Source: an uncultured Bacteroidales bacterium
GTDB taxonomy: Bacteria > Bacteroidota > Bacteroidia > Bacteroidales > Paludibacteraceae
DNA length: 64,000 bases
Assembly: GCA_902798015.1 (NCBI GenBank)
Contig: CADBVL010000013.1
Location: 147 to 64,146 of the forward strand
Reading direction: 5' to 3'
Shown: positions 19,006-59,579 of the stretch, one piece after another
Layout: each line of letters starts with the position of its first letter
How positions within the stretch are numbered: position 1 is the first letter of the stretch
Position numbers and translations under genes: made by a program
The notes under the pieces: model-generated
What the model was told of the DNA's origin: nothing
Seen by the model: only the letters and a program-made list of their open reading frames with translations
Database searches by the model: none

Positions 19006-19007
19006 AT

Positions 19008-19042: not shown

Positions 19043-19043
19043 C

Positions 19044-20294: not shown

Positions 20295-20339
20295 AATGTG
20301 TTATATTTAGTTTGTTAATAAATTTGCTTGCCCGTTAAA

Positions 20340-24125: not shown

Positions 24126-24146
24126 CTTTCAACTTTCAACTTTAAA
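24126..24146 (+). repeat. Period-7 tandem array CTTTCAA CTTTCAA CTTTAAA
   Basis: Read directly from the sequence. It spans the ddl stop codon and the leader of the polyprenyl synthase gene. Confidence 0.8.
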
Positions 24147-24288
24147 AGAACTTGTTCTCGATAATATCCGTCAGCACATCCTTGATGTCCAGTCCGGCTG
24201 CGCGAACCTGCTGGGGAATGAAACTGGTCGGCGTCATTCCGGGAGTGGTATTTACCTCTAAAAGGTTAATTTGTACATTCAAATTGTC

Positions 24289-39370: not shown

Positions 39371-40765
39371 ATGATTGACGAACGCGAGATACTTCGCAGG
39401 CGCGATATGCGCGATGTTTTCACCTTTACCATCGATCCCGCCGATGCCAAGGACTTCGATGACGCAATATCGTTTGAGAAGGAGCCTACCCCCGACCCCT
39501 CCCTAAATGGAGGGGAGGTATATCGCATAGGCGTTCACATCGCGGATGTCTCCCATTATGTCAAACCCGGTACGAAAACCGATGACGACGCCTATAAACG
39601 CGGCACGTCCACCTATCTCGTGGACCGCGTCATCCCCATGCTGCCCGAAGAACTGTGCAACGACCTGTGCTCGCTGCGGCCCGGAGAAGACAAACTATGT
39701 ATGTCCGTCGTCTTCCTTATGGACGCGGACGCACGCGTTCTTAAATATAAAATATGCCGCACCGTCATCCGCTCCGACGCCCGCCTCAATTACGACGAAG
39801 TACAGGACGTCATAAGCGCAAATCAGACTAACGAGACACTATCGAGAGAGAATCGAGACGGGGTAAACACAGAGGCAACAGCTATGCAAACCGAGGCTAT
39901 TCTTACCTTAAATGCTCTTGCATCCAAACTCCGTGCCGAACGACTTGCCAACGGGGCGCTTGCCATCGAGCAGGACGAGATGCGGTTCCGTCTGGACGAG
40001 CATTACCATCCGATAGACATCTATTTCGAGTCGCCCAACGAAGCCCATCATCTGATAGAAGAGTTCATGCTGCTTGCTAACCGTACCGTCGCCAAAGCCG
40101 TCGGCTCCGGACGTCCGTTCGTCTATCGCGTGCATGACCTGCCCGACAACGAGAAACTGGACGACCTCAAGAAATTCAAGAAACGGATGGGAACGCGCAT
40201 ACCGCAGCAGACAATCGATCTGCTCACCATCCGCGCACAAGCCAAAGCCGTCTATTCAACCTATAACATCGGCCACTACGGACTCGCCTTCTCCCATTAT
40301 ACCCATTTCACTTCGCCTATCCGTCGCTACCCCGACCTGATGGTGCACCGCCTCGTGGAGAAATATATCCTTACCGGCAAACCCTGTCCGCTTACCCGCG
40401 CCGAACTCGAAGAGAAATGTGAGCATTGCTCGGCGTGTGAACAGGCAGCCGCGCAAGCCGAACGCGACTCCATCAAACTGTTTCAGACCATGTGGATGGC
40501 GGATCATATCGGAGAGATACTGCCCGGACATATCACCGGCGTCACCGATTTCGGACTCTTCGTCCAACTCGATGACTCGCGGTGCGAAGGACTCGTCCAT
40601 ATCTCCAAAGTCGGCTTCCCCGGAGAGACGTGGAAATACGACGAAAAAAACTACCGCCTCATCTGCGCCGAGAACGGTATAACCCACACTTTGGGTGACG
40701 CCGTGCGCGTCAAAGTTGTCAAAACAGACGTAAATAGAAGCCAAATTGACTTTGAGTTGGTATAA
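39371..40765 (+). CDS. rnr: RNase R / RNase II-family exoribonuclease, RNB + S1 domains only (no N-terminal cold-shock domains)
   Basis: The RNB motifs FTIDPADAKDFDDAIS and GVHIADVSHYV start within the first 60 aa. The C-terminal S1-like region reads GHITGVTDFGLFVQL. Confidence 0.8.
   Translation: MIDEREILRRRDMRDVFTFTIDPADAKDFDDAISFEKEPTPDPSLNGGEVYRIGVHIADVSHYVKPGTKTDDDAYKRGTSTYLVDRVIPMLPEELCNDLCSLRPGEDKLCMSVVFLMDADARVLKYKICRTVIRSDARLNYDEVQDVISANQTNETLSRENRDGVNTEATAMQTEAILTLNALASKLRAERLANGALAIEQDEMRFRLDEHYHPIDIYFESPNEAHHLIEEFMLLANRTVAKAVGSGRPFVYRVHDLPDNEKLDDLKKFKKRMGTRIPQQTIDLLTIRAQAKAVYSTYNIGHYGLAFSHYTHFTSPIRRYPDLMVHRLVEKYILTGKPCPLTRAELEEKCEHCSACEQAAAQAERDSIKLFQTMWMADHIGEILPGHITGVTDFGLFVQLDDSRCEGLVHISKVGFPGETWKYDEKNYRLICAENGITHTLGDAVRVKVVKTDVNRSQIDFELV
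39484..39517 (+). repeat. GC-rich hairpin element, in frame in rnr
   Basis: Sequence GCCTACCCCCGACCCCTCCCTAAATGGAGGGGAG. Translated as EPTPDPSLNGGE between DDAISFEK and VYRIGVHIADV. Confidence 0.85.
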
Positions 40766-41786: not shown

Positions 41787-41814
41787 AAAAAAAGCCTCCG
41801 AAGAGGCTTTTTTT
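41787..41814. terminator. Bidirectional Rho-independent terminator (RHH gene / rpoD)
   Basis: A7 - AAGCCTC CGAA GAGGCTT - T6. Confidence 0.75.
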
Positions 41815-42674
41815 CATCCCAGATACGTTTGCAGTATGTGACTGCGTTGACCCGTGTTCAGTTTGCGGATCGCTTTCTCTTTGATCTGGCGTACGCGCTC
41901 GCGCGTCAAATGCAGTTCGTCTCCGATCTCTTCCAAGGTCTTCTCGGGAGTTCCGATACCGAAGAACTTGCGCAGGATATCCGCTTCACGCGGAGTCAAC
42001 GTGGCTAACGCACGGCTGATCTCCGTAGAGAGCGACTCGTTGATAAGACCGCGGTCGGCGTTCGGCGAATCTTCATTCACCATCACGTCGATAAGACTGT
42101 TGTCTTCGCCCTCTACAAACGGCGCATCGACACTCACGTGACGACCCGACATCTTCAGGGTGTCAGCGATCTTATCCACAGGGATATCCAGCATGTCGGC
42201 TAACTCTTCTGCACTCGGCTTGCGCTCGTGCTCTTGCTCAAAACGCTGGTACGCTTTGTTAATCTTGTTCATCGAACCAACCTGGTTGAGAGGAAGACGA
42301 ACGATACGGCTCTGCTCGGCCAACGCCTGGAGGATCGATTGACGAATCCACCAAACGGCGTACGAGATGAACTTGAAACCACGCGTCTCATCGAATTTCT
42401 CCGCTGCCTTGATCAGACCCAGGTTGCCTTCATTGATCAAGTCCGGCAAACTAAGACCCTGGTTCTGGTACTGCTTGGCTACGGAAACCACGAAGCGCAG
42501 GTTGCTCTTCGTCAATTTCTCCAAGGCCGCGCGGTCGCCGTTACGGATACGACCCGCCAGTTCTACTTCTTCTTCCACCGAAATCAACTCCTCTCGACCG
42601 ATCTCTTGAAGATACTTGTCCAGACTCGCTGACTCACGGTTGGTGATCGATTTTGTAATTTTTAATTGACGCAT
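41814..42674 (-). CDS. rpoD: RNA polymerase primary sigma factor (Bacteroidetes sigma-A, 286 aa)
   Basis: Regions 1.2 to 4.2 are recognisable ([40 protein letters not shown]....TRERVRQI). Confidence 0.95.
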
Positions 42675-42726
42675 ATACGATTAATATATATACTCTTGTT
42701 TCAATGTTATCCCTCCCTTCCCTTTT

Positions 42727-42832
42727 TATGGGGCCCCCGCAAATTTTAATTTGTGGGGAGAGCGGAGGCACAAGTCGTCCCATCGATTTAGCGGAGCGGT
42801 ATCGATTTTACGATCTTGTTGCCGAACGCGAA
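42727..42832 (+). repeat. ~105-nt structured repeat, copy B (candidate small RNA or REP-like element)
   Basis: About 80% identical to 13651..13756. The hairpin stems differ by compensatory changes while the 13-nt loop TTAGC(A/G)GAGCGGT is conserved. Confidence 0.7.
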
Positions 42833-42849
42833 GTGATCCGGTCGGGATT
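42833..42849 (-). repeat. 17-nt duplicate of the tRNA-Arg 3' end (att-like direct repeat)
   Basis: GTGATCCGGTCGGGATT is identical to 42948..42964. Confidence 0.8.
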
Positions 42850-42948
42850 TCTACGTAATCCCTGCTGCGCGCAGGGCGCTCAGCCCAGCCGTTTCCGCTA
42901 AACTACTCGCTCAAACAAGCTTGGCTCGTTTTTTAGCGAAAACGTCTG

Positions 42949-43022
42949 TGATCCGGTCGGGATTCGAACCCGAGACCCACAGCTTAGAAGGCTGTTGCTC
43001 TATCCAGCTGAGCTACCGGACC
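42949..43022 (-). tRNA. tRNA-Arg (anticodon TCT)
   Basis: Hand-folded cloverleaf: GGTCCGG TA GCTC AGCTGGATA GAGC A ACAGC CTTCTAA GCTGT GGGTC TCGGG TTCGAAT CCCGA CCGGATC A. No CCA is encoded. Confidence 0.9.
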
Positions 43023-43038: not shown

Positions 43039-43046
43039 CAAAGGTA
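43039..43046 (-). promoter_or_regulatory. Bacteroidetes -7 box TACCTTTG for tRNA-Arg
   Basis: TAnnTTTG, 17 nt upstream of the tRNA 5' end, with a TTG about 20 nt further upstream. Confidence 0.6.
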
Positions 43047-43512: not shown

Positions 43513-45794
43513 ACGCTTTGTTGTATTTGTTTGATGGTTATTCGTTTTTGATTGGGTCTGCGAAGCAGAATCTCCGTCAGCGGATCTTCCAGGTACGTCT
43601 GTACCGCCCGCTTAACAGGGCGGGCACCGTTCTTGGTGTCATAACTCTTATCGACCAGTTGACCAATCACCTCCGGCTTCACGCTCAGTTGGTGACCCGT
43701 CGTCTTGAGACGTTGTTGCAGCAGACTGATCTCGATACGTACGATCTGACCGATCGTCTCACGGCTCAACGGCTCAAACGTCACGACGTTGTCGATACGG
43801 TTCACGAACTCCGGCGGGAACTGTTTCTGCAGCGCCTTGAGTAGCATCTTCTGACTCTCTTTCGTGTTTACCTCGCCGGCATTGAATCCGACACCTCCGC
43901 CGAACTCCTGTAACTGACGCGTGCCGATATTGCTCGTCAGCACGATGATCGTATTGCGGAAATCGACGATATGTCCCTGACGGTCGGTCAAACGACCTTC
44001 GTCCAGTACCTGCAAAAGGATATTGAAGATATCCGGGTGCGCTTTCTCTATCTCGTCGAAGAGCACGATCGAGTAGGGTTTTCTTCTCACCGCCTCGGTT
44101 AACTTACCGCCGTCTTCGTGCGCTACATATCCCGGAGGCGCACCTACCAGCAGACTCACCGAGTGCTTCTCCATATATTCGGACATGTCGAAGCGGATCA
44201 TCGCCTCTTTGCTGCCGAACATCTCCTCCGCCAGACATTGGGCCAGATACGTCTTGCCGACACCCGTCTGACCAAGGAAGAAGAAGGTACCTATCGGACG
44301 TTTCGGATCGCGCAGACCCAGACGGCTGCGCTGGATAGCCTTCACGACGGTCTCCACCGCTTTGTCCTGACCGATGATCTTGTGCTTCAAGGTCTCCGCC
44401 ATCGTCAGCAGCCGTTCGTTCTCGGCGCGCGCTACGCGCTGGACGGGTACACCGGAGATCATGCTGATTACGCCCGCAACATCTTCTATTGTCACGGTAT
44501 AGGCCGGCTGCGCCGTCTCGCCTGCCGCCTGTTGGCGCGCATGACTGCGGGCTCCCACCTCGTCCATCACATCGATGGCTTTGTCCGGGAACGCGCGGTC
44601 GGTGATATACCGCTCACTCAGACTCACGCAGGCTTTGAGCACCTCTGTCGTATAAATCACGTTGTGGTAATGCGCATAATGATCACTCAGACGGCGAAGG
44701 ATGTCCAGAGTCTCAGTGCCCGTCGTAGGACGAACTTGTACCTTCTGGAAGCGGCGCTCCAATGCACCGTCTTTCTCTATCGACTTGGCGTACTCCGCCG
44801 TCGTTGTAGCTCCGATACACTGTATCTCGCCGCGCGCGAGAGCCGGCTTGAGGATATTCGCTGCGTCGAGCGAACCCGAAGCATTACCCGCACCGATGAT
44901 CGTATGGATCTCATCGATAAAAAGGATGATCTCGGGATGCGCCAGCAACTCGTTGATGATCTGCTTCATGCGCTCTTCGAACTGACCGCGGTACGTTGTA
45001 CCGGCTACCATCGAGGCGATGTCGAGCGTCACGATGCGGCGACCGGCGAGTGCGCCGGTCTCATCGTGAATGATACGCAGCGCCAACCCCTCCACGATAG
45101 CCGACTTGCCGACACCCGGTTCGCCGATAAGTATCGGGTTGTTCTTCTTGCGCCGGCTCAGGATCTGCACCACGCGCTCTATCTCCACCTCGCGGCCTAC
45201 GACAGGGTCTAACTTCCCCTCTTCAGCCTGTCTGGTCAGGTCGCGGCCGTACTTGTCCAATGCCGTTGTCGCGCTCTTTTTGTTCTTCGCCTGTTTCGGC
45301 TGGTCCGGTTCCCACGGCCCCTCATTGAGGTCACCCATCTGGTTGCCTCCTGCCGTAGGCGTCTCTGAACTGTAATGCGGCTGACCGTACAGGTCCACCA
45401 GTCGCATATAGCTGATGCCCCAGGTCTCCTCCAGGTACGCTGCGACGCGGTTGATCTGCTCGCGCAGAATGGCTAACAGCAGGTGGACCGAACCGATCTG
45501 CTCGGACCGGTATTCGCGGCTGATAGACTCCGCAATGCGAAGGATACGGTTGGTACGTGAACTCCGTTCAATCATTTCGACCGAACCCTGCTTGCCGCGG
45601 ATAAACGCCTCGATATGCTCCTTCGCCTCCTCCGGACGGAAAGAAGCGCGAAGCAGTAACTCGTATGCCGAACCCTCACCTAGACGCATGATGGCCAGTA
45701 ACAGATGTTCCGGCTCCACATGGGCACTCCAGAGACGCTCCGCCTCATCATGCGCATAAACGAGAATTTGATTTAAATGCTGTGTAACTTGCAT
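43509..45794 (-). CDS. clpC: ATP-dependent Clp protease ATP-binding subunit (ClpC/ClpA-like, two AAA+ modules)
   Basis: Clp_N repeats. Walker A motifs are [10 protein letters not shown] and [10 protein letters not shown]. The ClpB_D2-small C-terminus is present. Confidence 0.85.
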
Positions 45795-45800
45795 TCTCTA

Positions 45801-45842
45801 AATTATCAATTATCAATTATCAATTATCAATCATCAATTATA
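45801..45842 (+). repeat. Period-7 tandem array AATTATC x4, AATCATC, AATTATA
   Basis: Read directly from the sequence. It lies 6 nt upstream of the clpC ATG and covers the last codons and stop of the 45834 gene. Confidence 0.9.
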
Positions 45843-47783
45843 AAAATGCCATGCCAGGCCGGCGCGGAACGTGTCGCGGTTGGTCGGGTATCCGGGCATA
45901 GCCAGGTAGTCAATGTTATTCCTCATAAACAGATGGTTCAAATGCTGGTAATGGAAGAAGAACCGCAAGCGGATCGACCTCACATAGAAACTCGCATAAG
46001 CACTCATCCATGGATAGTTGCCGACGTTAATGTCGCTTTGTGTACCGAACATACCTGTCTCGGGACACAGTACCGGCGCATGGTAGCGCGTAAAATAACG
46101 TACGTCCACGCCCATCTGCGCGTCCAGCGCTCTCCACCATGTGCCGTGGTAGTATAGCCGGTGTTGTAAAATGAGCAGCGGAACCGGCATCACGCTGTCA
46201 TTCGTCGAATGTTGAACCACCATGCGGTTCTCCAGATTCACCCACGGTGTGGTGATATCAAGCCCTACATCACCCGTGATGATCTGTACGTTGCCGCGGA
46301 ACTGACGGGGCTTCCAGTCCAAAGCCGAGACATAGACGGGATTCGTCTGGTTCTCAAAACTGAAATCGATTCGCGGTTTCACCCATTTATAGGGATACGC
46401 CACCGTTGCGCCGCCGAGAAAACGATAGGTGAACCCGAAGGCGTTGTCCCATACCAGGTGGTTCGAGCGGAAACGCTGCAGGTACGGACTCGGCGTGACG
46501 CTTTTCGCATAAGCGCGTGCACTCACCAGTAAGGTCGTGTCCCCTACGCGGAACGCCGTCTCTAACTTGCCGTGGACGTCAAACTCACCGATCTTGTATC
46601 CCACCACGCATACTTGACCCTCAACGGTATAATGTACATTCGCGCCGCGATGCTTGTGTATCGCTCCGCCGACGAATGTGTTATTGGTCCAACGGTAGTC
46701 GAAAATACTGTCGTACGGCACGCTGTCAAAGAGATGCCGCTGGCATTCGTTCATCGCAAAAACCGTTGCGCCGAACTTCAACTTCCTGTTGTACGCCTCG
46801 CAGAACGTCACCGCCAGGGTGTTGCGGATCGTCAGCACGTCCGTATGGTCGTCCGTAGCCAGCGAGTCGTAGTAGATATGATCATAGAACCCCTGGTCCG
46901 AGACCTGCTCTATATAGCGCCTGTTCGAGTTGTTCGTCTCGAAGATATGGCTGAAAGTGATCAGCGGGATATACTCCACTTTCACCGTGTCGCGTTTCAC
47001 GCGCTGACCGTCTTCCACCACTTCGATCGAGTCGTGGTACTCGCGCTCTTTGGTGATCGCATACTGGTTGTGCAGAAAACCGCTCAAATACCGGTAGCCG
47101 GTCATGGCGTTCAACTGAACAGGGATATCCTCAGGACGCAGACTGCTTCGCAGGTCTTCTACATTCACCAACCCGCCGTTGTCAAACGAACTGAGTGAAC
47201 TCCAACCAAACGCGCCGTGCATGCTGTAGTGCGCGCCCGTATAACTGCCCCATACGCTGCCGCGGAACAACTTGCCTGCCGTGTTGGCATAGTGACCTAC
47301 CGAGTTCAGGTACTCCATCTCCACGCCCAGGTTCGTCTCGCGACCTAAGTTGCCGGTGAAAAGAAAACTGAGGTCGTTCTCCTCGTGTCCGGTAACAAAA
47401 CCTTTCTTGTAGGCGATGGACGAGTAAGGAGTCGTCGTGTTGAAGAAGCGTTGCTGCTGCGGCGTCACCACGTACGGCGTCAGACTGACGGCAAGCGGAT
47501 CGTCTATCGTTGTCAGACGGTCTTGAACCACGCGCGACTCAATAGGCGACACCAGAATATTGCCATTGAACGCACTGCTCAACGAATACCGCTGCTGGAT
47601 ATCGATGTCGTGGTAGTTGAGCATCGTCGTGTCGCGGAACGGGATAGTATCGGCTACCGCGCTGTAAGACGGCATCTGCCAGGTACGCACTACCGTCTTG
47701 ATACGCGGCGGCTTGGCAGCGGCCACAAGGGTCGCTGCCAACAGCACTAATACTATAAATAACCGTCTATTCAATGGTGTCAC
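45834..47783 (-). CDS. Hypothetical outer-membrane beta-barrel (putative porin family), GTG start
   Basis: Signal peptide LFIVLVLLAATLVAAA. The sequence is long and rich in Y/G/aromatic beta-strands and ends in ..AGLAWHFYN. The only in-frame start after the upstream stop is GTG 47783. Confidence 0.5.
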   Translation of the reverse strand: MTPLNRRLFIVLVLLAATLVAAAKPPRIKTVVRTWQMPSYSAVADTIPFRDTTMLNYHDIDIQQRYSLSSAFNGNILVSPIESRVVQDRLTTIDDPLAVSLTPYVVTPQQQRFFNTTTPYSSIAYKKGFVTGHEENDLSFLFTGNLGRETNLGVEMEYLNSVGHYANTAGKLFRGSVWGSYTGAHYSMHGAFGWSSLSSFDNGGLVNVEDLRSSLRPEDIPVQLNAMTGYRYLSGFLHNQYAITKEREYHDSIEVVEDGQRVKRDTVKVEYIPLITFSHIFETNNSNRRYIEQVSDQGFYDHIYYDSLATDDHTDVLTIRNTLAVTFCEAYNRKLKFGATVFAMNECQRHLFDSVPYDSIFDYRWTNNTFVGGAIHKHRGANVHYTVEGQVCVVGYKIGEFDVHGKLETAFRVGDTTLLVSARAYAKSVTPSPYLQRFRSNHLVWDNAFGFTYRFLGGATVAYPYKWVKPRIDFSFENQTNPVYVSALDWKPRQFRGNVQIITGDVGLDITTPWVNLENRMVVQHSTNDSVMPVPLLILQHRLYYHGTWWRALDAQMGVDVRYFTRYHAPVLCPETGMFGTQSDINVGNYPWMSAYASFYVRSIRLRFFFHYQHLNHLFMRNNIDYLAMPGYPTNRDTFRAGLAWHFYN

Positions 47784-47790
47784 TCACCCG

Positions 47791-47824
47791 TTCCCCTCCT
47801 TTTAGGGAGGGGGTAGGGGTAGGC
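47791..47824 (-). repeat. GC-rich hairpin element, intergenic (between GH57 stop and porin-like start)
   Basis: Sequence TTCCCCTCCTTTTAGGGAGGGGGTAGGGGTAGGC. Confidence 0.85.
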
Positions 47825-47834
47825 TTATTATTTC

Positions 47835-49100
47835 TCAACTCTTCTTCTTGAGCTTCGCCTGGAGCTGTTGAATCTCTTCCTCCTGGTTACGGATGGTCTT
47901 CAACAACTCATTCAGTTCCTCGTTTTCAATCGTCGTCGGGTATTGCTCCTCCACGCTCTGCAGGAAGTCGGACAGGATATTCATATAGTTGATGAACGCA
48001 TCGTAAGCCGACTCGTACTGCGTCTCGCCCTGGTCAATATGGTTCATGTTATGCAGGTAGTTCACATCCTGCAGACGCAGCCAGTTCGTCTTCAGATTCT
48101 TGTCTTGGCACAGGTGAACGCGCTCTGCTACGGCGTATAACTTATGAATAGCCTCTTGCTGCAAGTCGTTGCCGACGTATATGCTCAGGTCTTTCGCCTC
48201 GCCGCTCCATGTCAGCGGGTACGGACTCGACAGCACGTCGTTTGCAGTTAATTTCTTGGCTGCCTCGGACGGCGTAACAAAACCCATCTCGCGCTCCAAC
48301 GCAAAATACGGCAACGCTTTCAGGAAATCGAAGATACCCGAACCGGCGTTCTGACGGATACCGAAGGTCTCGGCGCCTACCCAGATATTAATCAGGTCGT
48401 CGCCTTCCGGCAGCGCCTTCAACTGGTCCGCATATTTCTCTGCGTCAATCGGGAAATTACCCCATCCCGGATCGGAGAAGTGGAAACTCAACTCATCGCT
48501 CAGCGCGGTGTTACGCAGTAAGACCTTCATCTTCGGTGCGCCCGCCGACTGATAGATATGGTTCGGACTCTTCCAACTGATCACGTGCTTGGCGCCCTCC
48601 GTCAGAATGGTCTTGTATCCCATCTTGTTCAACAGGTAAGCCGCCTCGTCCGTGTACAGCAACTCGGTGTTCCATACCGTCTGGGCCTTCACGCCGAGGA
48701 TGTTCTCCAGCAGGTCGCCTTGGAACTTCAGCTGTTTCTTGAACTCCGCCTCGTTGTACTCCGAAGCCAGCGAATAAGCGTACGGCGTAGCGAGGAACTC
48801 CACGCACTTGGTGGCAGCCAACTCCTTAAGGATGTCGATCATCTCCGGATTGAACTGCTCGAACATCTCGATCATCGTGCCGCTCACGCTCAGCGCGCAA
48901 TGGAACTTACCCTTACTCAGGTTGATCATGTCCTTAATCGTCGTGCACAATGGCAGATAGGACGTTTGAACCAACCAGTTAACATGCTCTTCAGTAGCCA
49001 TGTCATCGTAGTAGTAGTGATCATGACCAATCTCAAAGAAACGGTAACGCTTCAGACGGTAGGGAACATGCATCTGGAAGCAAAAACATATATTTTTCAT
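47835..49100 (-). CDS. Glycoside hydrolase family 57 (alpha-amylase-like)
   Basis: The N-terminus ICFCFQMHVPYRLKRY is typical of Bacteroidales GH57. Context is the glycogen block. Confidence 0.8.
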   Translation of the reverse strand: MKNICFCFQMHVPYRLKRYRFFEIGHDHYYYDDMATEEHVNWLVQTSYLPLCTTIKDMINLSKGKFHCALSVSGTMIEMFEQFNPEMIDILKELAATKCVEFLATPYAYSLASEYNEAEFKKQLKFQGDLLENILGVKAQTVWNTELLYTDEAAYLLNKMGYKTILTEGAKHVISWKSPNHIYQSAGAPKMKVLLRNTALSDELSFHFSDPGWGNFPIDAEKYADQLKALPEGDDLINIWVGAETFGIRQNAGSGIFDFLKALPYFALEREMGFVTPSEAAKKLTANDVLSSPYPLTWSGEAKDLSIYVGNDLQQEAIHKLYAVAERVHLCQDKNLKTNWLRLQDVNYLHNMNHIDQGETQYESAYDAFINYMNILSDFLQSVEEQYPTTIENEELNELLKTIRNQEEEIQQLQAKLKKKS

Positions 49101-49110
49101 AATATTGTTA

Positions 49111-49145
49111 AATTATCAATTATAAATTATCAATTATCAATTCTT
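49111..49145 (+). repeat. Period-7 tandem array AATTATC AATTATA AATTATC AATTATC AATTCTT
   Basis: Read directly from the sequence. It lies 10 nt upstream of the GH57 ATG and overlaps the GT4 stop. Confidence 0.9.
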
Positions 49146-50364
49146 AAAGTGTGTGATTTATGACACCATCATAAATCCGACGCACTTTAAGACCAGCGTC
49201 CGACCACTTGATGTTGTTGACTTCCGCCATGCCGAGTTCGTGCAGACTCTTGTACATCGCCGGATACTTGACGATCGCGTAGATAGCGTCTGCCATCGCA
49301 TCGATATCCCAGTAGTCGGTCTTGATGGCGTGCTGCAGGATCTCTGCGCAACCCGACTGATGACTGATGATTGACGGACAACCAACCTGCATCGCCTCCA
49401 GCGGACTGATACCGAACGGCTCACTCACAGACGGCATGATATAGACGTCGCTCATCGCGAGCATCTCCTGAACCTGCTTGCCGCGCATGAAACCGGGGAA
49501 GTGGAACTTCATCTTGTCTCCGCTGCCGGCCATCACAAAACGAACGCCGTCCGTCTTGCTCAGCACGCGTGCTGCGGCCTCTACGAAGTACTCCGGACCT
49601 TTCTGCATCGTGATACGGCCGAGGAAAGTGACCAGTTTGTCTTTGCGTTCGGGTTTCTTGAACTCCTCCGGATGAGCCAACGGCTCCACTGCGTTGTGGA
49701 CGGTGCTCACTTTGCGCGGGTCCTGACCGTATTTCTCGATCACCGTGTTGCGCGTCAGGTTACTTACGCATATGATATGATCGGCCTCGTCCATACCGCG
49801 TTTCTCGATGGCATAGACCGTCGGGTTCACGTTGCCGCGACTGCGGTCGAAATCCGTCGCATGAACGTGGATAACCAACGGCTTGCCGCTGATATGTTTC
49901 GCGAACACACCCGCCGGGTAGGTCAGCCAGTCGTGACTGTGAATGATGTCAAAATCCAGACTGTGCGCCAGCACACTCGCTACCGCTTCGTAGTTGCCGA
50001 TCTCTTCGATCAGGTTGTCCGGATAGCGGCCCGAGAAACCAACGCATCCAAGGTCGTCCGTGCCGATGCGGCGGTAGTCGTAATGAATGCCGTCACGCAG
50101 GTGATAATACTCCTCCGGACTCATCTTGCCTTCCATACGCGACTTGACGTAATCGTAGTTCACGTCCTTCCATACGATAGGCACGCTGTTCGCGCCGATG
50201 ATGCGGAGGAACGATTGATCCTCGTCACCCCATGGCTTCGGGATGACAAACGTGATATCCATGTCAGGCTGCTCTGCCATACCGCGGGTCAATCCGTAAC
50301 TCGCAGTACCCAAACCGCCTAAGATATGAGGGGGAAACTCCCAACCGAACATTAACGCTTTCAT
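49144..50364 (-). CDS. Glycosyltransferase family 4 (glycogen synthase-like)
   Basis: GGLGTA N-terminus, H.HDW motif and the C-terminal PS.SEPFGISPLEAM (E-x7-E region). Confidence 0.8.
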   Translation of the reverse strand: MKALMFGWEFPPHILGGLGTASYGLTRGMAEQPDMDITFVIPKPWGDEDQSFLRIIGANSVPIVWKDVNYDYVKSRMEGKMSPEEYYHLRDGIHYDYRRIGTDDLGCVGFSGRYPDNLIEEIGNYEAVASVLAHSLDFDIIHSHDWLTYPAGVFAKHISGKPLVIHVHATDFDRSRGNVNPTVYAIEKRGMDEADHIICVSNLTRNTVIEKYGQDPRKVSTVHNAVEPLAHPEEFKKPERKDKLVTFLGRITMQKGPEYFVEAAARVLSKTDGVRFVMAGSGDKMKFHFPGFMRGKQVQEMLAMSDVYIMPSVSEPFGISPLEAMQVGCPSIISHQSGCAEILQHAIKTDYWDIDAMADAIYAIVKYPAMYKSLHELGMAEVNNIKWSDAGLKVRRIYDGVINHTL

Positions 50365-52352
50365 AATTCTGCCTCCTCGCTTTCAACTTTCGACTTTAAA
50401 CTCTCAACTTCTGCCTTTTGATATCTTTTTAAGGTATCCAGCAGACTGATGACTGCCGCTACACTCGGCGCACTACTCATGCCGCCATGTCCCTTGTAGG
50501 GTGGGTTGCCGTCATAGCACTCGTTCAGCGTACCGATGGTCAGTTCGTCCATCTCAGCCTCAAAACCGATCAGCAGCCGTTCCATAAAGCTGGCGCCGCT
50601 GTACTTGTAGATGTTCATGTATGCGCGCGAATAAGCCGTGATGGTCGAGGGCCATACAACGCCGTTATGCAGACTCCTGTCGCGCTCTATCGCACCGCCG
50701 TAGCAGGTCGGACGGTAACTACCGCTCTTCGGACTCAGACTGCGCAGACCCTTCGGCGTCAGCAATTCCTTCGTGCATATATCCACTACCGCCTTCTGCT
50801 GCTTGCGGTCCAGCGGACTGTAAGGCAGACCTACCGCCCAGATCATGTTCGGGCGTACCTCGCGGTTCTGGTAGTTGTCAATCACGTAGTCATTTAGATA
50901 CAGCCCGTTCCAGAATGTCTTCACAAACGCATCCTTGCTGATCTCCGCCTGGTACTCCATCAGGTCGGCACTCGTCTCTTTGCCCATCTCGCGCAGCATC
51001 TCAGCCGTGAAGCGCATTGCGTTGTACCATAGCGCGTTGATCTCTACGACATAACCTGTACGCGGGGTGATAGGCCATCCGTTCTCCGTGGCGTTCATCC
51101 ATGTGGCGGGACGCTGTGTGCCATCCACCCATAACAAACCGTTCTGGTGCAACTTCGCACGCGGATGGTTCTGCTTGCGGTACCAGTTGATGATATCCAG
51201 ACAGAGCTGACCGTACAGGTCGGCTGCCTCGCGGACCGTATATTTATGCGCGTATTTTTGGCATGCGCGAATGAACCACAATAGCACATCCGGCTCGTCC
51301 ATTCCCGTCATCTTCAGGTCATGGATGCGGCCGTTCATGAAGTTCAGTATCTCTTCGATGGCCGTCTTGTTGATGATAGCATCCCAATATTCCGGACGGT
51401 CGATGTCCAACGTACAACTGGCGACACTGAAGAATGTGGAGCGTGCGTCGGGACCGAACCATGGGAAACCGGCTAAGAGATAACACTTGTCTCCTTCGCG
51501 TTTGTAGAACTGACTCGCGCTGTTCTTCAGCGTGGAGAACATGTCCTCGCGACGGATGCGGCGCTCCAACTCTTTCTTCCATACGGTCTTCAACTGCGCA
51601 GTCTTGCATTCCGTCACGCCGCCGGCGAAAATAACACTCTCGCCTTTCTTCATCGGCAACTCAAAATAACCCGGAACCAACAGATCCTCTTTGTAGGCAT
51701 ATCCGCGTTCGCGCTCCTTGCGGTACTCGATGTCCTTGTACCACTGCGGGTCGTGATGATACTCAACCGCCTTGCTGAACTGCATGTACAGGTTCGGGAA
51801 ACCCGGATACATGCGGTTGAAACGACCGTTCTCGCAGTCGTTCATGTCTGCGTTGGCCAGCGGGTTCTCATGCGTCAACTCATTCACGCTGCGGAACGCA
51901 AGGAACGGACGGAAACGAAGCGTCGTCGGACTACCGCTCTCCAGCAGCGTGTAGCGAATCAGCACACGCGGCTCAAAACTGACGAGCATGCGCTCCTTCT
52001 GAAGCACCATCGCACCTACACGGTAGGTCGTGCGAGAGATGACGTCGCAGTCAAACTCGCGGATGTACTTGTGCCCGTTCGGGCTGAAATGATTCTCTCC
52101 GTACTCGTGCAGACCCAGGTTGAACTCTGCTCCGTGCTGGATCACCGTCTCGTCCAGCGAACTGAGCAACACGAAGTTGTCATCGCTGATATGCGGCAAC
52201 GGCATCACCAACTGACCGTGGTACTTGCGCGTGTTGCAATCGACCAAAGTGGTCGAGTTGTACACACCGGCACGGTTGGTTCGAATCATCTCCTTCTGAA
52301 GCGAACGCTCCAGATTAACAAGTACTGTCTTGTCAAAATTAAGATAACTCAT
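50361..52352 (-). CDS. Glycogen debranching enzyme (GDE N-terminal + amylo-alpha-1,6-glucosidase domains)
   Basis: Motifs are NTRKYHGLL-like (NTRKYHGQLV), GFPWFG.D.R and NGWP. There is an ATGA overlap with the GT4 start. Confidence 0.85.
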   Translation of the reverse strand: MSYLNFDKTVLVNLERSLQKEMIRTNRAGVYNSTTLVDCNTRKYHGQLVMPLPHISDDNFVLLSSLDETVIQHGAEFNLGLHEYGENHFSPNGHKYIREFDCDVISRTTYRVGAMVLQKERMLVSFEPRVLIRYTLLESGSPTTLRFRPFLAFRSVNELTHENPLANADMNDCENGRFNRMYPGFPNLYMQFSKAVEYHHDPQWYKDIEYRKERERGYAYKEDLLVPGYFELPMKKGESVIFAGGVTECKTAQLKTVWKKELERRIRREDMFSTLKNSASQFYKREGDKCYLLAGFPWFGPDARSTFFSVASCTLDIDRPEYWDAIINKTAIEEILNFMNGRIHDLKMTGMDEPDVLLWFIRACQKYAHKYTVREAADLYGQLCLDIINWYRKQNHPRAKLHQNGLLWVDGTQRPATWMNATENGWPITPRTGYVVEINALWYNAMRFTAEMLREMGKETSADLMEYQAEISKDAFVKTFWNGLYLNDYVIDNYQNREVRPNMIWAVGLPYSPLDRKQQKAVVDICTKELLTPKGLRSLSPKSGSYRPTCYGGAIERDRSLHNGVVWPSTITAYSRAYMNIYKYSGASFMERLLIGFEAEMDELTIGTLNECYDGNPPYKGHGGMSSAPSVAAVISLLDTLKRYQKAEVESLKSKVESEEAEL
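50380..50414 (+). repeat. Period-7 tandem array CTTTCAA CTTTCGA CTTTAAA CTCTCAA CTTCTGC inside the debranching-enzyme 3' end
   Basis: Read directly from the sequence. Translated as ..KAEVESLKSKVESEEAEL at the protein C-terminus. Confidence 0.85.
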
Positions 52353-52375: not shown

Positions 52376-53539
52376 TTAGTTGTATTTGCCTTCAAACTTT
52401 GTTTGCGCGTCGGCCACGAACTGCTTGATACGCTGCTCTTCGCCTTTCTTGCAAACCAACAAAACTCCCTTCTGTTCGGCGATGATCATGTCGTTCACGC
52501 CTTGCACTACGGCTAACTTGCCCGGCTCCAGCGTCACGACATTGCCTTCCGCCTCGTAGAACAGCGCGTCTGAATGCAGACTCACGTTGTGCGCCTCGTC
52601 TTTCTCGCTCAACTCGTACAGACTGCCCCAGGTGCCTAAGTCGCTCCAGCCGAAACTCGACGGCAGTACGAATACATTGTCCGCCTTCTCCATAATGCCG
52701 TAGTCGATGGAGATGTTCGGGCATTTGGGGAAGATATGCTCGATGAACTCCTCCTCTTTGTCGGTACCCATCAGCAACTCGCCTTCACGGAAACGGTCCG
52801 CCACTTCCGGCAACAGATATCGGAATGCTTCACTGATGGTTTGCAGGTTCCAAATGAAGATACCGCTGTTCCAAAGGAAATCACCGCTCTGCAAGAACAC
52901 TTTCGCCATCTCCAGGTTCGGCTTCTCCGTAAACGTCTTCACTGGATAAATGTCTCTAAACTCTAAACTCTCAACTCTCAACTTGTCCAATGCGTTTTCA
53001 ACGAATTGGATATACCCATACCCCGTCTCCGGCCGCGTGGGTTGCATGCCGAGCGTCGCTATCGCCTTGTTCTTGCTTACAAAATCAAACGCCTTCAATA
53101 TCGTCTGACGGAATTTGTCTTCTTCCAATATCAGATGGTCGCTCGCCGCTACGACAATATTCGCCTGCATCTCCGGCCGGCTCCAGTCCTGGTTCGCGGC
53201 CGTGAGGCCCGCGCGACGCAAGCAGAGCGCGCGTATATGTGCGGTCGCGTATGCGATACAGGGCGCCGTATTTCGGCGAGCCGGCTCGCATAATATCTGC
53301 TTCTCCGACAAATCCGGAACCTGCTCCAAAATCAACTCCTTATACGCCACATTCGTGACGATAAACACATTCTCAATCGGCACAATCGGACGAAAACGAT
53401 CTACCGTCATCTGCAGCAAACTGCGACCCGTGCCGAAGAAATCCAAAAACTGTTTCGGCTTCTCTGCACGACTGTACGGCCAGAAACGGCTGCCTACACC
53501 GCCCGCCATAATGACGCAATAATTGTTGTTCTTCTTCAT
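52376..53539 (-). CDS. Mannose-1-phosphate guanylyltransferase-like nucleotidyltransferase
   Basis: ATG 53539 gives MKKNNNYCVIMAGGVGSRFWPYSR..KPKQF. Later motifs are RNTAPCIAYA and SDH.I. Confidence 0.8.
   Translation of the reverse strand: MKKNNNYCVIMAGGVGSRFWPYSRAEKPKQFLDFFGTGRSLLQMTVDRFRPIVPIENVFIVTNVAYKELILEQVPDLSEKQILCEPARRNTAPCIAYATAHIRALCLRRAGLTAANQDWSRPEMQANIVVAASDHLILEEDKFRQTILKAFDFVSKNKAIATLGMQPTRPETGYGYIQFVENALDKLRVESLEFRDIYPVKTFTEKPNLEMAKVFLQSGDFLWNSGIFIWNLQTISEAFRYLLPEVADRFREGELLMGTDKEEEFIEHIFPKCPNISIDYGIMEKADNVFVLPSSFGWSDLGTWGSLYELSEKDEAHNVSLHSDALFYEAEGNVVTLEPGKLAVVQGVNDMIIAEQKGVLLVCKKGEEQRIKQFVADAQTKFEGKYN
52954..52988 (+). repeat. Period-7 tandem array CTCTAAA CTCTAAA CTCTCAA CTCTCAA CTTGTCC inside the nucleotidyltransferase CDS
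   Basis: Read directly from the sequence. Translated as DKLRVESLEFRD. Confidence 0.85.
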
Positions 53540-53665: not shown

Positions 53666-53700
53666 CTTTCAACTTTCAACTTTCAACTTTCAACTTTATT
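53666..53700 (+). repeat. Period-7 tandem array CTTTCAA x4 + CTTTATT
   Basis: Read directly from the sequence, in the divergent intergenic region immediately 5' of the gldD -7 box. Confidence 0.9.
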
Positions 53701-53703
53701 TAC

Positions 53704-53711
53704 TACCTTTG
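53704..53711 (+). promoter_or_regulatory. Bacteroidetes -7 box TACCTTTG for gldD
   Basis: TAnnTTTG, 20 nt upstream of ATG 53731. Confidence 0.55.
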
Positions 53712-53730
53712 TGCCGTAATTTGGAGTATA

Positions 53731-54339
53731 ATGGACTTTAGGCAAAAAATATTACCTCTTTTGTGGCTGGTCATGGCGATGGTTTCCTGCGGACGGGCGA
53801 CTGCGCCGAAACCGTATGGTTATTACCGTATCACGGTGCCCGACACCGCATATATGCCGTTTGAGGACTATCCTCTTTCAACTTTCAACCTTCAACTTTC
53901 AACTTACCCATATACTTTCGCTCTCTCGCAAAATGCGGTGGTGCAGCCCCGCACGGACGTGGAAGAACCCTATTGGATCAACCTCTATTATCCGGCGCTG
54001 GACGCTACCATCCATTGCTCCTATAAACCCGTTCGGAACAACCTGCGCGAACTGACCAACGATGCGCTCGAGTTCGTGTACCGCAACGCCTCTTTCGCGA
54101 ACGCTATCCCCGAACGCGAATATTCTCATCCCGAGGCGCAGGTGTACGGCGTGCTCTTCGACCTGGAGGGAAACACCGCTTCGTCCTGCCAGTTCTTTGT
54201 GACCGACTCCGTGAACCATTTCTTCCGCGCATCGGTCTATTGCAACTGCCCGCCGAATGCCGACTCCCTTGCACCCGTATATGAGTACCTCCGCAAAGAT
54301 GTCATCAAAATGGTAGAGACGTTTAACTGGGAAGAATAA
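53731..54339 (+). CDS. gldD: Gliding-motility/T9SS-associated lipoprotein GldD
   Basis: Lipoprotein signal MAMVSC. Motifs are PKPYGYYRI, CSYKPV..NL..L..D and QFFVTDS..HFFRASVY...PNADSL.PV. Confidence 0.65.
   Translation: MDFRQKILPLLWLVMAMVSCGRATAPKPYGYYRITVPDTAYMPFEDYPLSTFNLQLSTYPYTFALSQNAVVQPRTDVEEPYWINLYYPALDATIHCSYKPVRNNLRELTNDALEFVYRNASFANAIPEREYSHPEAQVYGVLFDLEGNTASSCQFFVTDSVNHFFRASVYCNCPPNADSLAPVYEYLRKDVIKMVETFNWEE
53875..53909 (+). repeat. Period-7 tandem array CTTTCAA CTTTCAA CCTTCAA CTTTCAA CTTACCC inside gldD
   Basis: Read directly from the sequence. Translated as PLSTFNLQLSTYP. Confidence 0.9.
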
Positions 54340-57469: not shown

Positions 57470-57504
57470 TAATTTTTAATTTTTAATTCTTAATTTTTAA
57501 TTGA
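57470..57504 (+). repeat. Period-7 tandem array TAATTTT TAATTTT TAATTCT TAATTTT TAATTGA
   Basis: Read directly from the sequence. The first 28 nt are identical to 58563..58590. The last unit supplies the TAA stop and TTG start context of dusB. Confidence 0.9.
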
Positions 57505-58565
57505 ACAACTTTCCTCTATATCTTGCCCCGATGGAGGACGTCACCGATCCGGCCTTCCGTGCGTTGTGCAAACGCTACGGAGCCGATCGTGTCTATACCG
57601 AATTCGTCAATGCCGACGCACTCGTACGCGACATCGCTTCCACGACGCGCAAACTCACCATCCATGATGCCGAGCGGCCGGTGGCAATCCAGATCTACGG
57701 GCGTGACCCCGAGTCGATGGCAGGCGCCGCGCGTATCGTCGAGCAGGCACATCCTGACTTCATCGACATCAATTTCGGCTGTCCCGTGAAGAAAGTGGCA
57801 GGCAAAGGTGCCGGAGCGGGACTGCTGCGTGATGTGCCGAAGATGCTGGATATCACCCGCGCTGTCGTCAATGCCGTCCATACACCCGTTACTGTCAAGA
57901 CCCGCCTCGGATGGGATGATAAGGACCTCATTCCCAGAGTAAATCCGCTGGGCCTCAATACTCCCTTCCCTTTAGGGGAGGGGCGGGGTGAGGCTTCTTT
58001 CTTCATCGTTGATCTCGCGGAAGCCTTGCAGGACTGCGGCATCGCCGAACTCGCCATTCACGGCCGTACACGTTCGCAGATGTACCGCGGCGAAGCGGAT
58101 TGGACACTCATCGGTGAGGTGAAGAACAACCCGCGCATGCGCATACCTGTCATAGGGAACGGGGACGTATGCACACCCGAGCGCGTAAAAGAGTGCTTCG
58201 ACCGCTACGGTGTGGATGCCGTCATGGTTGGTCGCGCTACCTTCGGCGCACCCTGGCTCTTCGCAGAGATGAAGAATTATCTGAATCCTATCACCCCTCC
58301 TTTCAGGGAGGGGACGGGGGTAGGCTTCCCTCGCACTATGTCCGACAAAGTCGCCGTGCTCAAAGAACACGTCCTTGCTTCCATACAGTGGTGCGGCAAT
58401 GACGAGCGCAAAGGAATCGTACATTCGCGGCGCCATTTTGCGGCTTCGCCTGTCTTCAAAGGACTCGATAACTTCAAGCAGACACGCATCGCCCTTCTCC
58501 GCGCGGAAACAGTAGATGAGGTCTTCACTATCATGGACGAGATAGTAGAAAAATGGGGCGATTAA
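57501..58565 (+). CDS. dusB: tRNA-dihydrouridine synthase (DusB-like), TTG start
   Basis: Motifs are LAPMEDVTDPAFR, INFGCPV.KV, VKTRLGW, HGRT and GNGD. An in-frame TAA lies immediately upstream, so TTG 57501 is the only start that keeps the conserved N-terminus. Confidence 0.85.
   Translation: MNNFPLYLAPMEDVTDPAFRALCKRYGADRVYTEFVNADALVRDIASTTRKLTIHDAERPVAIQIYGRDPESMAGAARIVEQAHPDFIDINFGCPVKKVAGKGAGAGLLRDVPKMLDITRAVVNAVHTPVTVKTRLGWDDKDLIPRVNPLGLNTPFPLGEGRGEASFFIVDLAEALQDCGIAELAIHGRTRSQMYRGEADWTLIGEVKNNPRMRIPVIGNGDVCTPERVKECFDRYGVDAVMVGRATFGAPWLFAEMKNYLNPITPPFREGTGVGFPRTMSDKVAVLKEHVLASIQWCGNDERKGIVHSRRHFAASPVFKGLDNFKQTRIALLRAETVDEVFTIMDEIVEKWGD
57961..57994 (-). repeat. GC-rich hairpin element, in frame in dusB
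   Basis: Sequence CTCCCTTCCCTTTAGGGGAGGGGCGGGGTGAGGC. Translated as TPFPLGEGRGEA. Confidence 0.85.
58292..58325 (-). repeat. GC-rich hairpin element, in frame in dusB
   Basis: Sequence CACCCCTCCTTTCAGGGAGGGGACGGGGGTAGGC. Translated as TPPFREGTGVG. Confidence 0.85.
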
Positions 58566-58597
58566 TTTTTAATTTTTAATTCTTAATTTTGAATTTT
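58563..58597 (+). repeat. Period-7 tandem array TAATTTT TAATTTT TAATTCT TAATTTT GAATTTT
   Basis: Read directly from the sequence. The first unit is the dusB stop codon and the last unit contains the TTG start of the next ORF. Confidence 0.9.
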
Positions 58598-59579
58598 GAA
58601 ACGCTTCTTCGACAGTAACGCCCTCTGGCTCTCGATGCTCATCGGTGCGCTCGGCTATAAACTCTTCCTTCCCCTCGCACCCATACTCCCGTGGCTGATT
58701 TTCTTCATGCTCTTTTTTACCTTCTGTAAAATCAATCCGCTGGATCTTCGTCTACATAAATGGCATTGGGTCGTTTTGGCAGTGCAGCTCCTTTTCTCCT
58801 TCGCCTCCTATGCGGGATTGATGTATTTTACGGGTGACAAGGTGCTCGCGCAGGGGATACTCATGTGTTTTATCATGCCTACCGCTACGGCGGCACCCAT
58901 CATAGCGGGAAAAATGGGAGGTTCCATACAGAATCTGACCACCTTTACTTTGCTTTCCAATTTCGCTACGGCCATCATTGTTCCGGCTACTTTCCCGCTC
59001 ATCAACCCCGCAGCGAACATGACTTTCTTTCCCGCTTTCCTGCTAATCCTTTCCCGCGTTGCCCCGCTCTTGTTAGGTCCCTTCTTCTCAGCCTGGCTCC
59101 TCCGGATAGCGTATCAGAGATGGACAAAAAAGGAGTTTGTATTATCTCGGGCGGCGGCGCAGATTCCTTTCTATCTCTGGGTGGCATCGATCGTTGTCCT
59201 CTCAGCCGTCGTAACGAATACAACCATACTCAATTTCCAATCTCAAATCGCCAATATACTAATTTTATTAGTATTATCTTTCTTCGCTTGCCTGCTGCAG
59301 TTCGGACTTGGCAAACTCATCGGCTATTATCTGCCGGCGCCGAGCAAGGGACGTGATTACCAGGATGTACTCATCAATCCTGCTGCGGCTCCTAAAACGA
59401 TGGAGGGCGTCTCTTCCATCACTGCCGGACAAGCGTTTGGACAGAAAAACACCTCACTTGGTGTGTGGATGGCGAATACCTATTTGGACCCGATGGCTTC
59501 ACTCGGAGCGGCGGCATATATTATTTGGCAGAATGTCTTTAATTCTGTTCAACTTTTCGTGGCGGCGCATAAAAAATAA
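58596..59579 (+). CDS. Bile acid:Na+ symporter (SBF/BASS)-like transporter
   Basis: About 9-10 TM helices and an FGQKNTSLGVWMA motif. The start is uncertain (TTG 58596 or ATG 58635). Confidence 0.6.
   Translation: MKRFFDSNALWLSMLIGALGYKLFLPLAPILPWLIFFMLFFTFCKINPLDLRLHKWHWVVLAVQLLFSFASYAGLMYFTGDKVLAQGILMCFIMPTATAAPIIAGKMGGSIQNLTTFTLLSNFATAIIVPATFPLINPAANMTFFPAFLLILSRVAPLLLGPFFSAWLLRIAYQRWTKKEFVLSRAAAQIPFYLWVASIVVLSAVVTNTTILNFQSQIANILILLVLSFFACLLQFGLGKLIGYYLPAPSKGRDYQDVLINPAAAPKTMEGVSSITAGQAFGQKNTSLGVWMANTYLDPMASLGAAAYIIWQNVFNSVQLFVAAHKK

Follow-up and report, generated by a model that had tools for sequence, protein, structure and literature searches.

The 64-kb window analysed here (64,000 nt of contig CADBVL010000013.1 from an uncultured Bacteroidales bacterium of the Paludibacteraceae) harbours a repeat of about 105 nt which occurs twice, as copy A beside xerD and as copy B between a tRNA-Arg gene and rpoD. 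An initial annotation had proposed a small RNA or a structured mobile element, and the question raised by the locus is which of the two is correct. We found both copies to be members of a previously uncatalogued family of folded intergenic repeats. The element is a dispersed structured repeat and not a stand-alone small-RNA (sRNA) gene. The mobile-element half of the proposal fits the copy number, the identical cores and the presence or absence of the element in related genomes, while the sRNA half is not supported. With moderate confidence we favour a REPIN/ERIC-like, non-autonomous element which is mobile or recombining and has partly been domesticated as a transcript-boundary module.

The two copies and their family

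Aligned across about 140 nt, copies A and B show a mean column identity of 84%, which confirms the two-copy repeat. A covariance model built on 78 distinct family members matches copy B at 42755-42831 (96.7 bits) and copy A at 13678-13754 (91.7 bits). Searched with all filters off, the 64-kb window yields no third copy, the next-best match reaching 12.2 bits (E = 0.49), and the 17-mer TGGGGAGAGCGGAGGCA does not occur in the window beyond copies A and B even if three mismatches are permitted.

Further copies were collected by scanning one genome per GTDB species with the pattern GGAGAGCGGAGGN{15,30}AGCNGAGCGG, which requires two exact motifs. At least 118 loci were obtained, referred to by L numbers, each being an 8-kb tile of a metagenome-assembled genome (MAG) with crude open reading frame (ORF) and ARAGORN gene calls. 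About 95 of these at least 118 listed loci hold true copies, the remainder being GC-rich chance matches; model R1 finds at least 109 copies above 58 bits in 100 loci among the matches listed. The hosts of the true copies are Paludibacteraceae or "Bacteroidales" MAGs of cattle, sheep, goat, deer, yak, buffalo and horse, and a few copies stem from Muribaculaceae-labelled and human-gut MAGs. A MAG carries, as a lower bound, at least 4-7 copies, and some neighbouring copies are only 230-700 nt apart. The element, which measures about 100-145 bp, is specific to Paludibacteraceae-like Bacteroidales.

At the gathering threshold, Rfam 15 recognises tRNA-Arg alone in the whole window. Within 42650-42960 the sole match at E <= 10 is a 13.9-bit CRISPR-DR, a chance match located outside the element. 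In agreement with the initial annotation, where tmRNA, signal recognition particle RNA, 6S and RNase P RNA had not been recognised by eye, the Rfam 15 covariance scans gave no match to any of them on the element, nor to ribozymes or Bacteroidales motifs. Likeness to tRNA or tmRNA was rejected, as ARAGORN and RF00005 call the true tRNA-Arg only. A phage or plasmid origin was rejected as well: the pattern scan of IMG/VR produced four chance matches (three at 19-23.5 bits by the model, the fourth, L120, without a model match), and distant-mode blastn against INPHARED and PLSDB produced none. In the literature we found no described Paludibacteraceae or Bacteroidetes repeat of such kind.

Anatomy and fold of the element

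Both copies lie on the + strand and consist of the following parts.

42720-42831, + strand: copy B, complete element (P0, P1, junction, long hairpin, tail), from model match and minimum free energy (MFE) fold
42720-42733, + strand: P0 hairpin CCCT-TTTTAT-GGGG of copy B, from MFE fold
42735-42758, + strand: P1 hairpin CCCCG CAAATTTTAATTTG TGGGG with G.T at pair 5, from the family P1 comparison
42759-42766, + strand: invariant junction AGAGCGGA with one of the two GAGCGG motifs, from the family alignment (invariant columns 3-14)
42767-42823, + strand: long imperfect hairpin P2/P3/P4, from pair counts in 78 distinct copies
42767-42774 with 42815-42818 and 42820-42823, + strand: P2, GGCAnnnG with CnnnT-TGCC
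42775-42778 with 42810-42813, + strand: P3, TYGY with RCRA
42782-42787 with 42801-42806, + strand: P4 of copy B, 5-6 bp in the family
42788-42800, + strand: invariant 13-nt P4 loop TTAGCGGAGCGGT, from the family alignment, with one variable site R (A or G)
42824-42831, + strand: 3' tail GAACGCGA with the precise right end, in the relatives L002 and L071 flush with the tRNA-Arg 3' end
13655-13754, + strand: copy A, without P0, from model match; its core is identical to that of L064
13658-13681, + strand: P1 of copy A
13682-13689, + strand: junction of copy A
13690-13746, + strand: long hairpin of copy A
13710-13722, + strand: loop of copy A
13747-13754, + strand: tail of copy A

Across the family, P0 is optional, takes the form CCCY-loop-GGGG and is restricted to subfamilies which are normally transcribed in the + sense. 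A single base, mostly T or C, links it to P1. The latter has the general form CCCC-G...T-GGGG with an interchangeable distal part or tip, for which at least five unrelated versions of 15-40 nt exist; its pair 5 is G.T in 42, A-T in 14 and G-C in two of 65 distinct versions. The tail reads GAACGCG(A) throughout the family alignment. The two GAGCGG motifs are direct repeats about three helical turns apart, and GGGGNCCCC at the left end is a palindrome.

The structural details of the initial annotation could all be reproduced. Hairpin 1, CCCCG(A/C)AAATT..AATTT(T/G)TGGGG, is present with its + strand G.T pair and a single A-T to C-G swap between the copies. Both copies contain the 13-nt loop TTAGC(A/G)GAGCGGT (TTAGCRGAGCGGT), the stem of hairpin 3 changes from ACCGT/ACGGT to ATCGAT/ATCGAT with three compensated pairs, and the runs T6 and T3 follow it. 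The extent of copy B, however, had to be corrected to a start at 42720, owing to the extra 5' hairpin CCCT..GGGG which copy A, overlapping the 3' end of the xerD ORF, does not possess. In addition, two long-range helices enclosing hairpin 3 (GGCAnnnG/CnnnT-TGCC and TYGY/RCRA), both covarying, had been overlooked. Because of these helices the T-run is to be regarded as an internal loop of the long hairpin; being bracketed by covarying P3 pairs and not conserved, it was rejected as a terminator. A terminator-like call at 13705-13722 was likewise discarded as a mis-paired alternative which has no counterpart in copy B.

The pairings were evaluated by counting 18 pairs in 78 distinct cores, with 500 shuffles and slid partners as controls. 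They are kept in the further copies: 95.4% of the cells hold a standard pair compared to 77.3% in the shuffles and at most 47% with slid partners. Double-sided changes are found in 13 of the 18 pairs (8.7 in shuffles) and in 283 cells (94.8 in shuffles), and none of the 500 shuffles reaches the observed values. With pairs compensated across many copies, the repeat qualifies as a generic structured non-coding element. A coding function was rejected since the copies differ by 1-nt indels, the xerD tail described below being incidental. No consistent target was seen for a guide-like pairing of the variable P2 box with flanking sequence.

Nearly all core pairs are of the Watson-Crick type (1326, versus 13 G.T and 3-4 A.C). 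Both strands fold as mirror images, the + strand being more stable (-47.1 versus -40.6 kcal/mol); the MFE fold of copy B comprises P0, P1 and the P2-P4 hairpin with z = -3.4. The preference for the + strand fold suspected earlier from wobble pairing is thus supported both by the core and by pair 5 of P1 (G.T in 42/65). This bias does not correlate with the strand transcribed by the host.

Probable spread, decay and conservation

Identical 77-nt cores are found at unrelated loci, one of them being common to nine loci including two of MAG UBA3808, which suggests that copies have spread or been converted recently. P1 types and core types are shuffled among the copies. Orthologous sites may carry different subfamilies and P1 modules, as is the case for copy B of the window, L002 and L071, which therefore indicates replacement or gene conversion. 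Internal deletions and remnants are present in L052, L054 and L027. At L075 a deletion from the right end reaches into queD, and at L017 (about 300-480, compared to L116) a copy replaces 66 nt (22 codons, EKEGQMYVLLIQRGNEPYKGYW) of a Nudix hydrolase gene.

Orthologous copies of the same subfamily diverge by 5.2%, compared to 22.3% for 250-nt flanks, i.e. about four-fold less. Several orthologous pairs differ by at most 1% within the element at 12-21% in the flanks, for example:

L066 / L077: element divergence 0.8%, flanks 17-19%
L030 / L062: element divergence 0.8%, flanks 15-21%

We would like to mention that at L087, from a Paludibacteraceae MAG of horse faeces, two inverted copies with inward right ends bracket a phage endolysin-like ORF (1504-2111; phrog_873, E = 3e-38). 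One copy is flush with the ATG of this ORF and the other is fused to its 3' end in a manner comparable to xerD.

The copy A site

Copy A fills the spacer between two genes to which it is antisense.

13669-14655, - strand: xerD ORF, whose codons 302-328 (13669-13752) are read from the element
11251-13650, - strand: DUF5686/CarboxypepD_reg gene, ATG 4 nt from the left end of copy A

The XerD family model stops at residue 300 of 328, exactly at the right end of the element, and the 120 closest XerD homologues are 301-308 amino acids long. Hence, the last 27 codons of the window xerD are element sequence, its own stop codon having been replaced by copy A. The first 17 codons of the DUF5686 gene also differ from those of the empty-site allele. 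The window shares copy A with L064, whose flanks are 94-95% identical, and with P0134 (98.5% amino acid identity of XerD), whereas the XerD relatives L127 (97%), L123 (95%) and L125 (89%) lack it. Compared to L127, the element plus 55 nt stand in place of 96 nt. The lost 96 nt comprise the xerD tail KVKGER* and a 27-codon signal peptide; the 55 new nt encode a different one of 17 residues. The DUF5686 signal peptide accordingly reads MKRILFILYTILSLPIM (13601-13654) instead of MKGKRIHSIVWKLIFLSIFISHFSILH (L127, 2400-2500), and exactly from AVETIIVGE onwards, the N-terminus of mature DUF5686, the gene is again homologous to the empty-site allele.

Placement across the family

The right (GCGA) end of the element is flush, to within 0-3 nt, with a landmark of one of five kinds. 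Counts at tRNA genes are exact (ARAGORN), while those for starts, stops and transcription starts derive from manual reading of the flanks.

Right end at tRNA 5' end, same strand: 21 loci
Right end at tRNA 3' end, opposite strand: 5 loci
Right end at start codon (rpmF, queD, tdh and others), same strand: about 15 loci
Right end at stop codon (groEL, frr and others), opposite strand: about 12 loci
Right end about 3 nt after a TAnnTTTG box, opposite strand: about 11 loci

At the latter 11 or so loci the host transcript therefore begins with the - strand of the element. On its left, the element borders AT-rich spacers or the terminus of the preceding gene. Its right-hand neighbour shares its strand in 64 cases and lies on the opposite one in 33, and host promoters fire into either strand. 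Nearly all copies are located inside transcription units, with only 6 of 109 between convergent genes.

Subfamilies are defined by a 3-bp box in P2, and the boxes track the context. CAA, GAA and TAA boxes are those of tRNA leaders, downstream of the tRNA promoter. The TCG box, combined with P0, abuts start codons, and ATG, GGA and ATA boxes are antisense to both neighbours, those with ATG or GGA in operon spacers. When 609 ORFs of the 8-kb loci were clustered, a single neighbour recurred, an uncharacterised protein family of about 125 amino acids which has no Pfam or PHROG match. These proteins (MAKVxYSAGIDHVSGALxKPSKxGQHSC...CNRIYLR...) are flush with the right end of the element in L013, L015, L022, L031 and L073. 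They are nearby, though not flush, in L091, L102, L105 and L113, and the window contains no homologue.

The copy B site

Copy B is located in the spacer from tRNA-Arg to rpoD. As at copy A, all neighbouring genes are on the - strand, so that in the window each copy runs antisense to the genes beside it.

41814-42674, - strand: rpoD-type sigma factor gene, ATG 45 nt past the left end of copy B
42833-42849, + strand: exact 17-nt duplicate of the tRNA-Arg 3' end, the same as 42948-42964
42948-43022, - strand: tRNA-Arg(TCT), from ARAGORN and Rfam, ancestral flush neighbour of copy B
43039-43046, - strand: canonical Bacteroidetes -7 box TACCTTTG with TTG 20 nt upstream, from promoter scan

The orthologous loci L002 and L071 show the order rpoD, element, tRNA-Arg, the element being flush with the tRNA 3' end. 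In the window, a 115-nt insertion which is absent from L002 and L071 parts copy B from tRNA-Arg. This piece (42833-42947) consists of the 17-nt tRNA-Arg duplicate followed by 98 nt of unique, strongly folding sequence, and its appearance is that of a scar left by integration at the tRNA 3' end, or of a tiny insertion with an att-like duplication.

Judged by its sequence, the TACCTTTG promoter is the only canonical one near either copy; it would drive tRNA-Arg and read towards copy B and rpoD. Upstream of copies A and B no TAnnTTTG promoter is present on the + strand. A sigma70-like TTGACG-17-TATACT (42666-42694, + strand, 10/12 matches) lies 26 nt upstream of copy B and overlaps the rpoD start codon. 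It is not of the Bacteroidetes type and has no counterpart before copy A. A simple scan for sigma70 promoters and terminators revealed nothing consistent between the two copies.

Interpretation

According to the reading we favour, the element would spread and recombine as DNA in a non-autonomous fashion. Its + strand folds into P1 and the three-part long hairpin, leaving the invariant GAGCGG (twice) and GAACGCGA unpaired, and this fold, in single-stranded DNA or in an RNA copy, would be what the propagation machinery requires. The GCGA end would land flush with the next functional unit, adjacent DNA sometimes being deleted or replaced, and the element would then be co-transcribed in the orientation of its landing. 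Resident copies are held by purifying selection, and we infer that their hairpins may serve as transcript-boundary modules in processing or stability. The flush end could result from repeated right-end deletions which selection stops at the next essential boundary, a course of events which would fit L075, L017 and copy A.

A DNA element with a + strand fold relevant to propagation is suggested by four observations: the near absence of wobble pairs, the + strand wobble bias, which is the same whichever strand the host transcribes, the modular shuffling of P1 and core types, and presence or absence in close relatives together with the damage to neighbouring genes. The initial annotation had inferred a function at the RNA level from covariation and the conserved loop. 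Both are real, but this conclusion is weakened: compensatory changes in hairpins of mobile DNA have been reported for REPINs (PMC3116915), and covariation is therefore no proof of an RNA gene.

Several observations weigh against the reading just given. Clustering of 609 ORFs from the 8-kb loci, a search confined to these loci, revealed no recurrent transposase or RAYT-like gene near the copies. Terminal inverted repeats are missing, as the left GGGGNCCCC.. and the right ..GAACGCGA or ..TTGCCGAACGCGA ends are not mutual reverse complements. No target-site duplication is visible at the three xerD empty sites, where the flanking DNA has also been replaced so that the junctions are not clean. The phage and plasmid collections searched contain no copies. 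GC skew, a noisy test on 8-kb blocks, gives no orientation bias relative to replication (+ strand positive in 43% of 109 loci, mean -0.006), which counts against a lagging-strand mechanism of the IS200/IS605 type. The reading leaves the flush right end unaccounted for, and random insertion does not predict the ties between subfamily and context. Moreover, a selfish element at a fixed site should decay, yet orthologous copies are better conserved than neighbouring coding DNA. Such strong conservation of resident copies, context-tied subfamilies and placement at exact boundaries are not expected of a purely selfish repeat, and it is for this reason that partial domestication forms part of the reading we favour.

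Alternatively, the element could be a host-encoded cis-acting RNA "punctuation" module of leaders and spacers which has no present mobility, a reading we consider possible though unlikely. Such a module would guide endonucleolytic processing or shield the ends of transcripts, and RNase P would release a stable RNA derived from the tRNA leader. The roughly four-fold stronger conservation of orthologous copies over their flanks agrees with such a role, as do the location of nearly all copies inside transcription units, the coincidence of the right end with a mature RNA end at 26 tRNA genes (21 5', 5 3'), the match of subfamilies to context and orientation with P0 confined to sense-transcribed ones, and highly expressed neighbours such as rpmF, groEL, frr and rpoD. 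The same invariant motifs, however, are present in oppositely transcribed copies, and consequently no RNA sequence is common to all of them. RNA families do not usually lack G.U pairs to such an extent, close relatives are polymorphic for copy A, which is moreover fused to an ORF, and some copies disrupt genes.

The occurrence of both orientations might instead be part of the function. Sense copies in tRNA and mRNA leaders and antisense copies in operon spacers and 5' untranslated regions coexist within a genome, and a single cell would therefore produce RNAs complementary to each other. Between the senses there is perfect complementarity of the invariant segments, namely GGGGAGAGCGGAGGCA, the 13-nt loop together with the bases closing it, and GCCGAACGCGA, all of which are predicted to be unpaired. 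In a bidirectional punctuation module, kissing-loop pairing of the two senses, or a single nuclease cutting flush at GCGA, would define tRNA and mRNA ends. The need for both senses to fold would explain the near absence of wobble pairs, and expression of the spacer-bearing operons could be coupled to tRNA transcription. We regard this proposal as rather doubtful.

Transcription would be irrelevant if the element were a site acting at the DNA level, either a protein-binding cruciform or hairpin module, comparable to REP/BIME sequences which bind gyrase or IHF, or a recombinase site. Conserved motifs independent of orientation, the spacing of the two direct GAGCGG motifs, the palindromic left end and stems limited to Watson-Crick pairs, as expected if both DNA strands fold, are in line with this idea. 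In contrast, a single folded strand rather than a symmetric cruciform is indicated by the conserved + strand G.T of P1 and by the 13:4 wobble bias, neither flush placement nor context-specific subfamilies are predicted, and no candidate binding protein was identified. Altogether, we consider a DNA-level site improbable.

Finally, an independent sRNA gene of about 80-110 nt on the + strand, running antisense to its neighbours or diverging from them, which the initial annotation had preferred as a transcript of about 80 nt, is very improbable and was rejected on promoter, terminator and orientation: although the more stable + strand fold, the wobble pairs and the sigma70-like sequence before copy B speak in its favour, neither copy has a + strand TAnnTTTG promoter nearby, a conserved terminator is missing as the T-run is an internal loop, the region upstream of copy A is coding, host promoters abutting the right end at about 11 loci fire into the - strand, and a tRNA or ATG only 0-3 nt past the element leaves no room for termination.

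Comparison with known systems

The element resembles REP sequences and REPINs, which are mobilised by RAYT proteins, in being a short, non-coding, extragenic and dispersed repeat with predicted hairpins in single-stranded DNA or mRNA, in combining conserved motifs with compensatory stem changes (PMC3116915), and in occurring in either orientation and as subfamilies within a genome. Its family alignment contains no conserved GTAG or CGTC tag of the kind described for REP sequences (PMC3733652). Membership, i.e. an inverted doublet of 20-40-nt REP palindromes with such a tag, was rejected, the element not being an inverted REP doublet: its GAGCGG motifs are direct and mostly unpaired. It furthermore differs from REPINs by the extra P1 or P0 hairpin and by the precise flush right end.

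ERIC, Correia/NEMIS and BOX elements are intergenic repeats of 100-150 bp from Proteobacteria or Firmicutes which are co-transcribed in either orientation. They form stable RNA hairpins able to affect mRNA processing or stability. In shape they are imperfect palindromes bounded by terminal inverted repeats, to which Correia elements add TA duplications, and BOX is modular. Our element shares with them size, intergenic sites, co-transcription, hairpins and modularity. In contrast to them, as generally described, it is asymmetric, is found in Bacteroidales, has an invariant 13-nt loop instead of terminal inverted repeats and shows far stronger stem covariation. Having no terminal inverted repeats, it also does not qualify as a miniature inverted-repeat transposable element.

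In integron attC sites structure is conserved above sequence; they act as folded single strands, the hairpins of which have bulged bases and a tip that varies, and lie flush with ORF ends. All of this recalls the element with its folded hairpins, its variable tip and its flush placement at ORF ends. The RYYYAAC/GTTRRRY ends of attC, however, are represented by a single near-match, GCCGAAC, at one end, so this class was rejected. In addition, the element does not occur in arrays, no integron integrase is nearby, and its neighbours are core genes such as rpoD, groEL, rpmF and tRNA genes.

Ends of the IS200/IS605 type and their miniature derivatives have neither terminal inverted repeats nor target duplications, and carry subterminal hairpins with conserved one-strand mismatches. 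The element is similar with respect to the missing terminal inverted repeats, one-strand mismatches and a precise end a few nt beyond a hairpin. Its left and right hairpins, however, bear no relation to one another, neither TnpA nor TnpB genes are found near the copies in the 8-kb loci, and no specific target motif was identified. Since, by the noisy GC-skew test, orientation is not tied to replication, a single-stranded DNA element of this type was rejected.

Structured modules exactly at mature RNA or coding boundaries are known from tRNA-like "t-elements" and from organelle tRNA punctuation. The similarity is one of placement and a functional analogy only, as neither ARAGORN nor the Rfam tRNA model finds the element tRNA-like.

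Significance

Should the favoured reading be correct, the Paludibacteraceae of rumen and gut possess a conserved structured element which is listed in no RNA or repeat catalogue. Located systematically at exact tRNA and ORF boundaries, it can extend or rewrite coding ends, as exemplified by the xerD tail and the new signal peptide, and gene calling in thousands of MAGs would be affected. With respect to method, strong covariation together with conserved loops does not by itself establish an RNA gene. The unusual combination of a right end flush with gene boundaries, subfamilies matched to context and copies better conserved than the neighbouring genes offers a testable case that a transposon has been domesticated to provide signals for transcript processing, in a phylum of which the RNA biology is poorly known.

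Other repeats in the window

A second repeat family in the window is a 37-nt GC-rich hairpin, GAGCCTAnCCCCnnCCCTTCCCTGAAAGGAAGGGAGA.

11881-11917, 12470-12506, 12838-12874 and 39482-39518, + strand: 37-nt repeat
47790-47826, 57960-57996 and 58291-58327, - strand: 37-nt repeat, with a further occurrence at about 24288

Three of the copies lie on the antisense strand inside the 799-amino-acid DUF5686 ORF, where they are translated as ..LPSLQGGAGVG.., ..SLPFREGPGLGSL.. and ..SLPSFQGRAGD... Tandem heptamer arrays of CTTTCAA, AATTATC and AATTTTT recur in the window as well.

19006-19060, 20333-20378, 24126-24156, 45794-45862, 49097-49151 and 50380-50425: heptamer arrays
52954-52984, 53666-53715, 53866-53920, 57471-57518 and 58564-58604: heptamer arrays

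Related loci contain GTTTAAA or AATTAAA arrays directly upstream of start codons, and the heptamer arrays may represent a lineage-specific leader or spacer feature. Near the end of the window, a 318-nt tandem duplication with 83-93% identity (63238-63824) looks like a repeated domain within a coding region.

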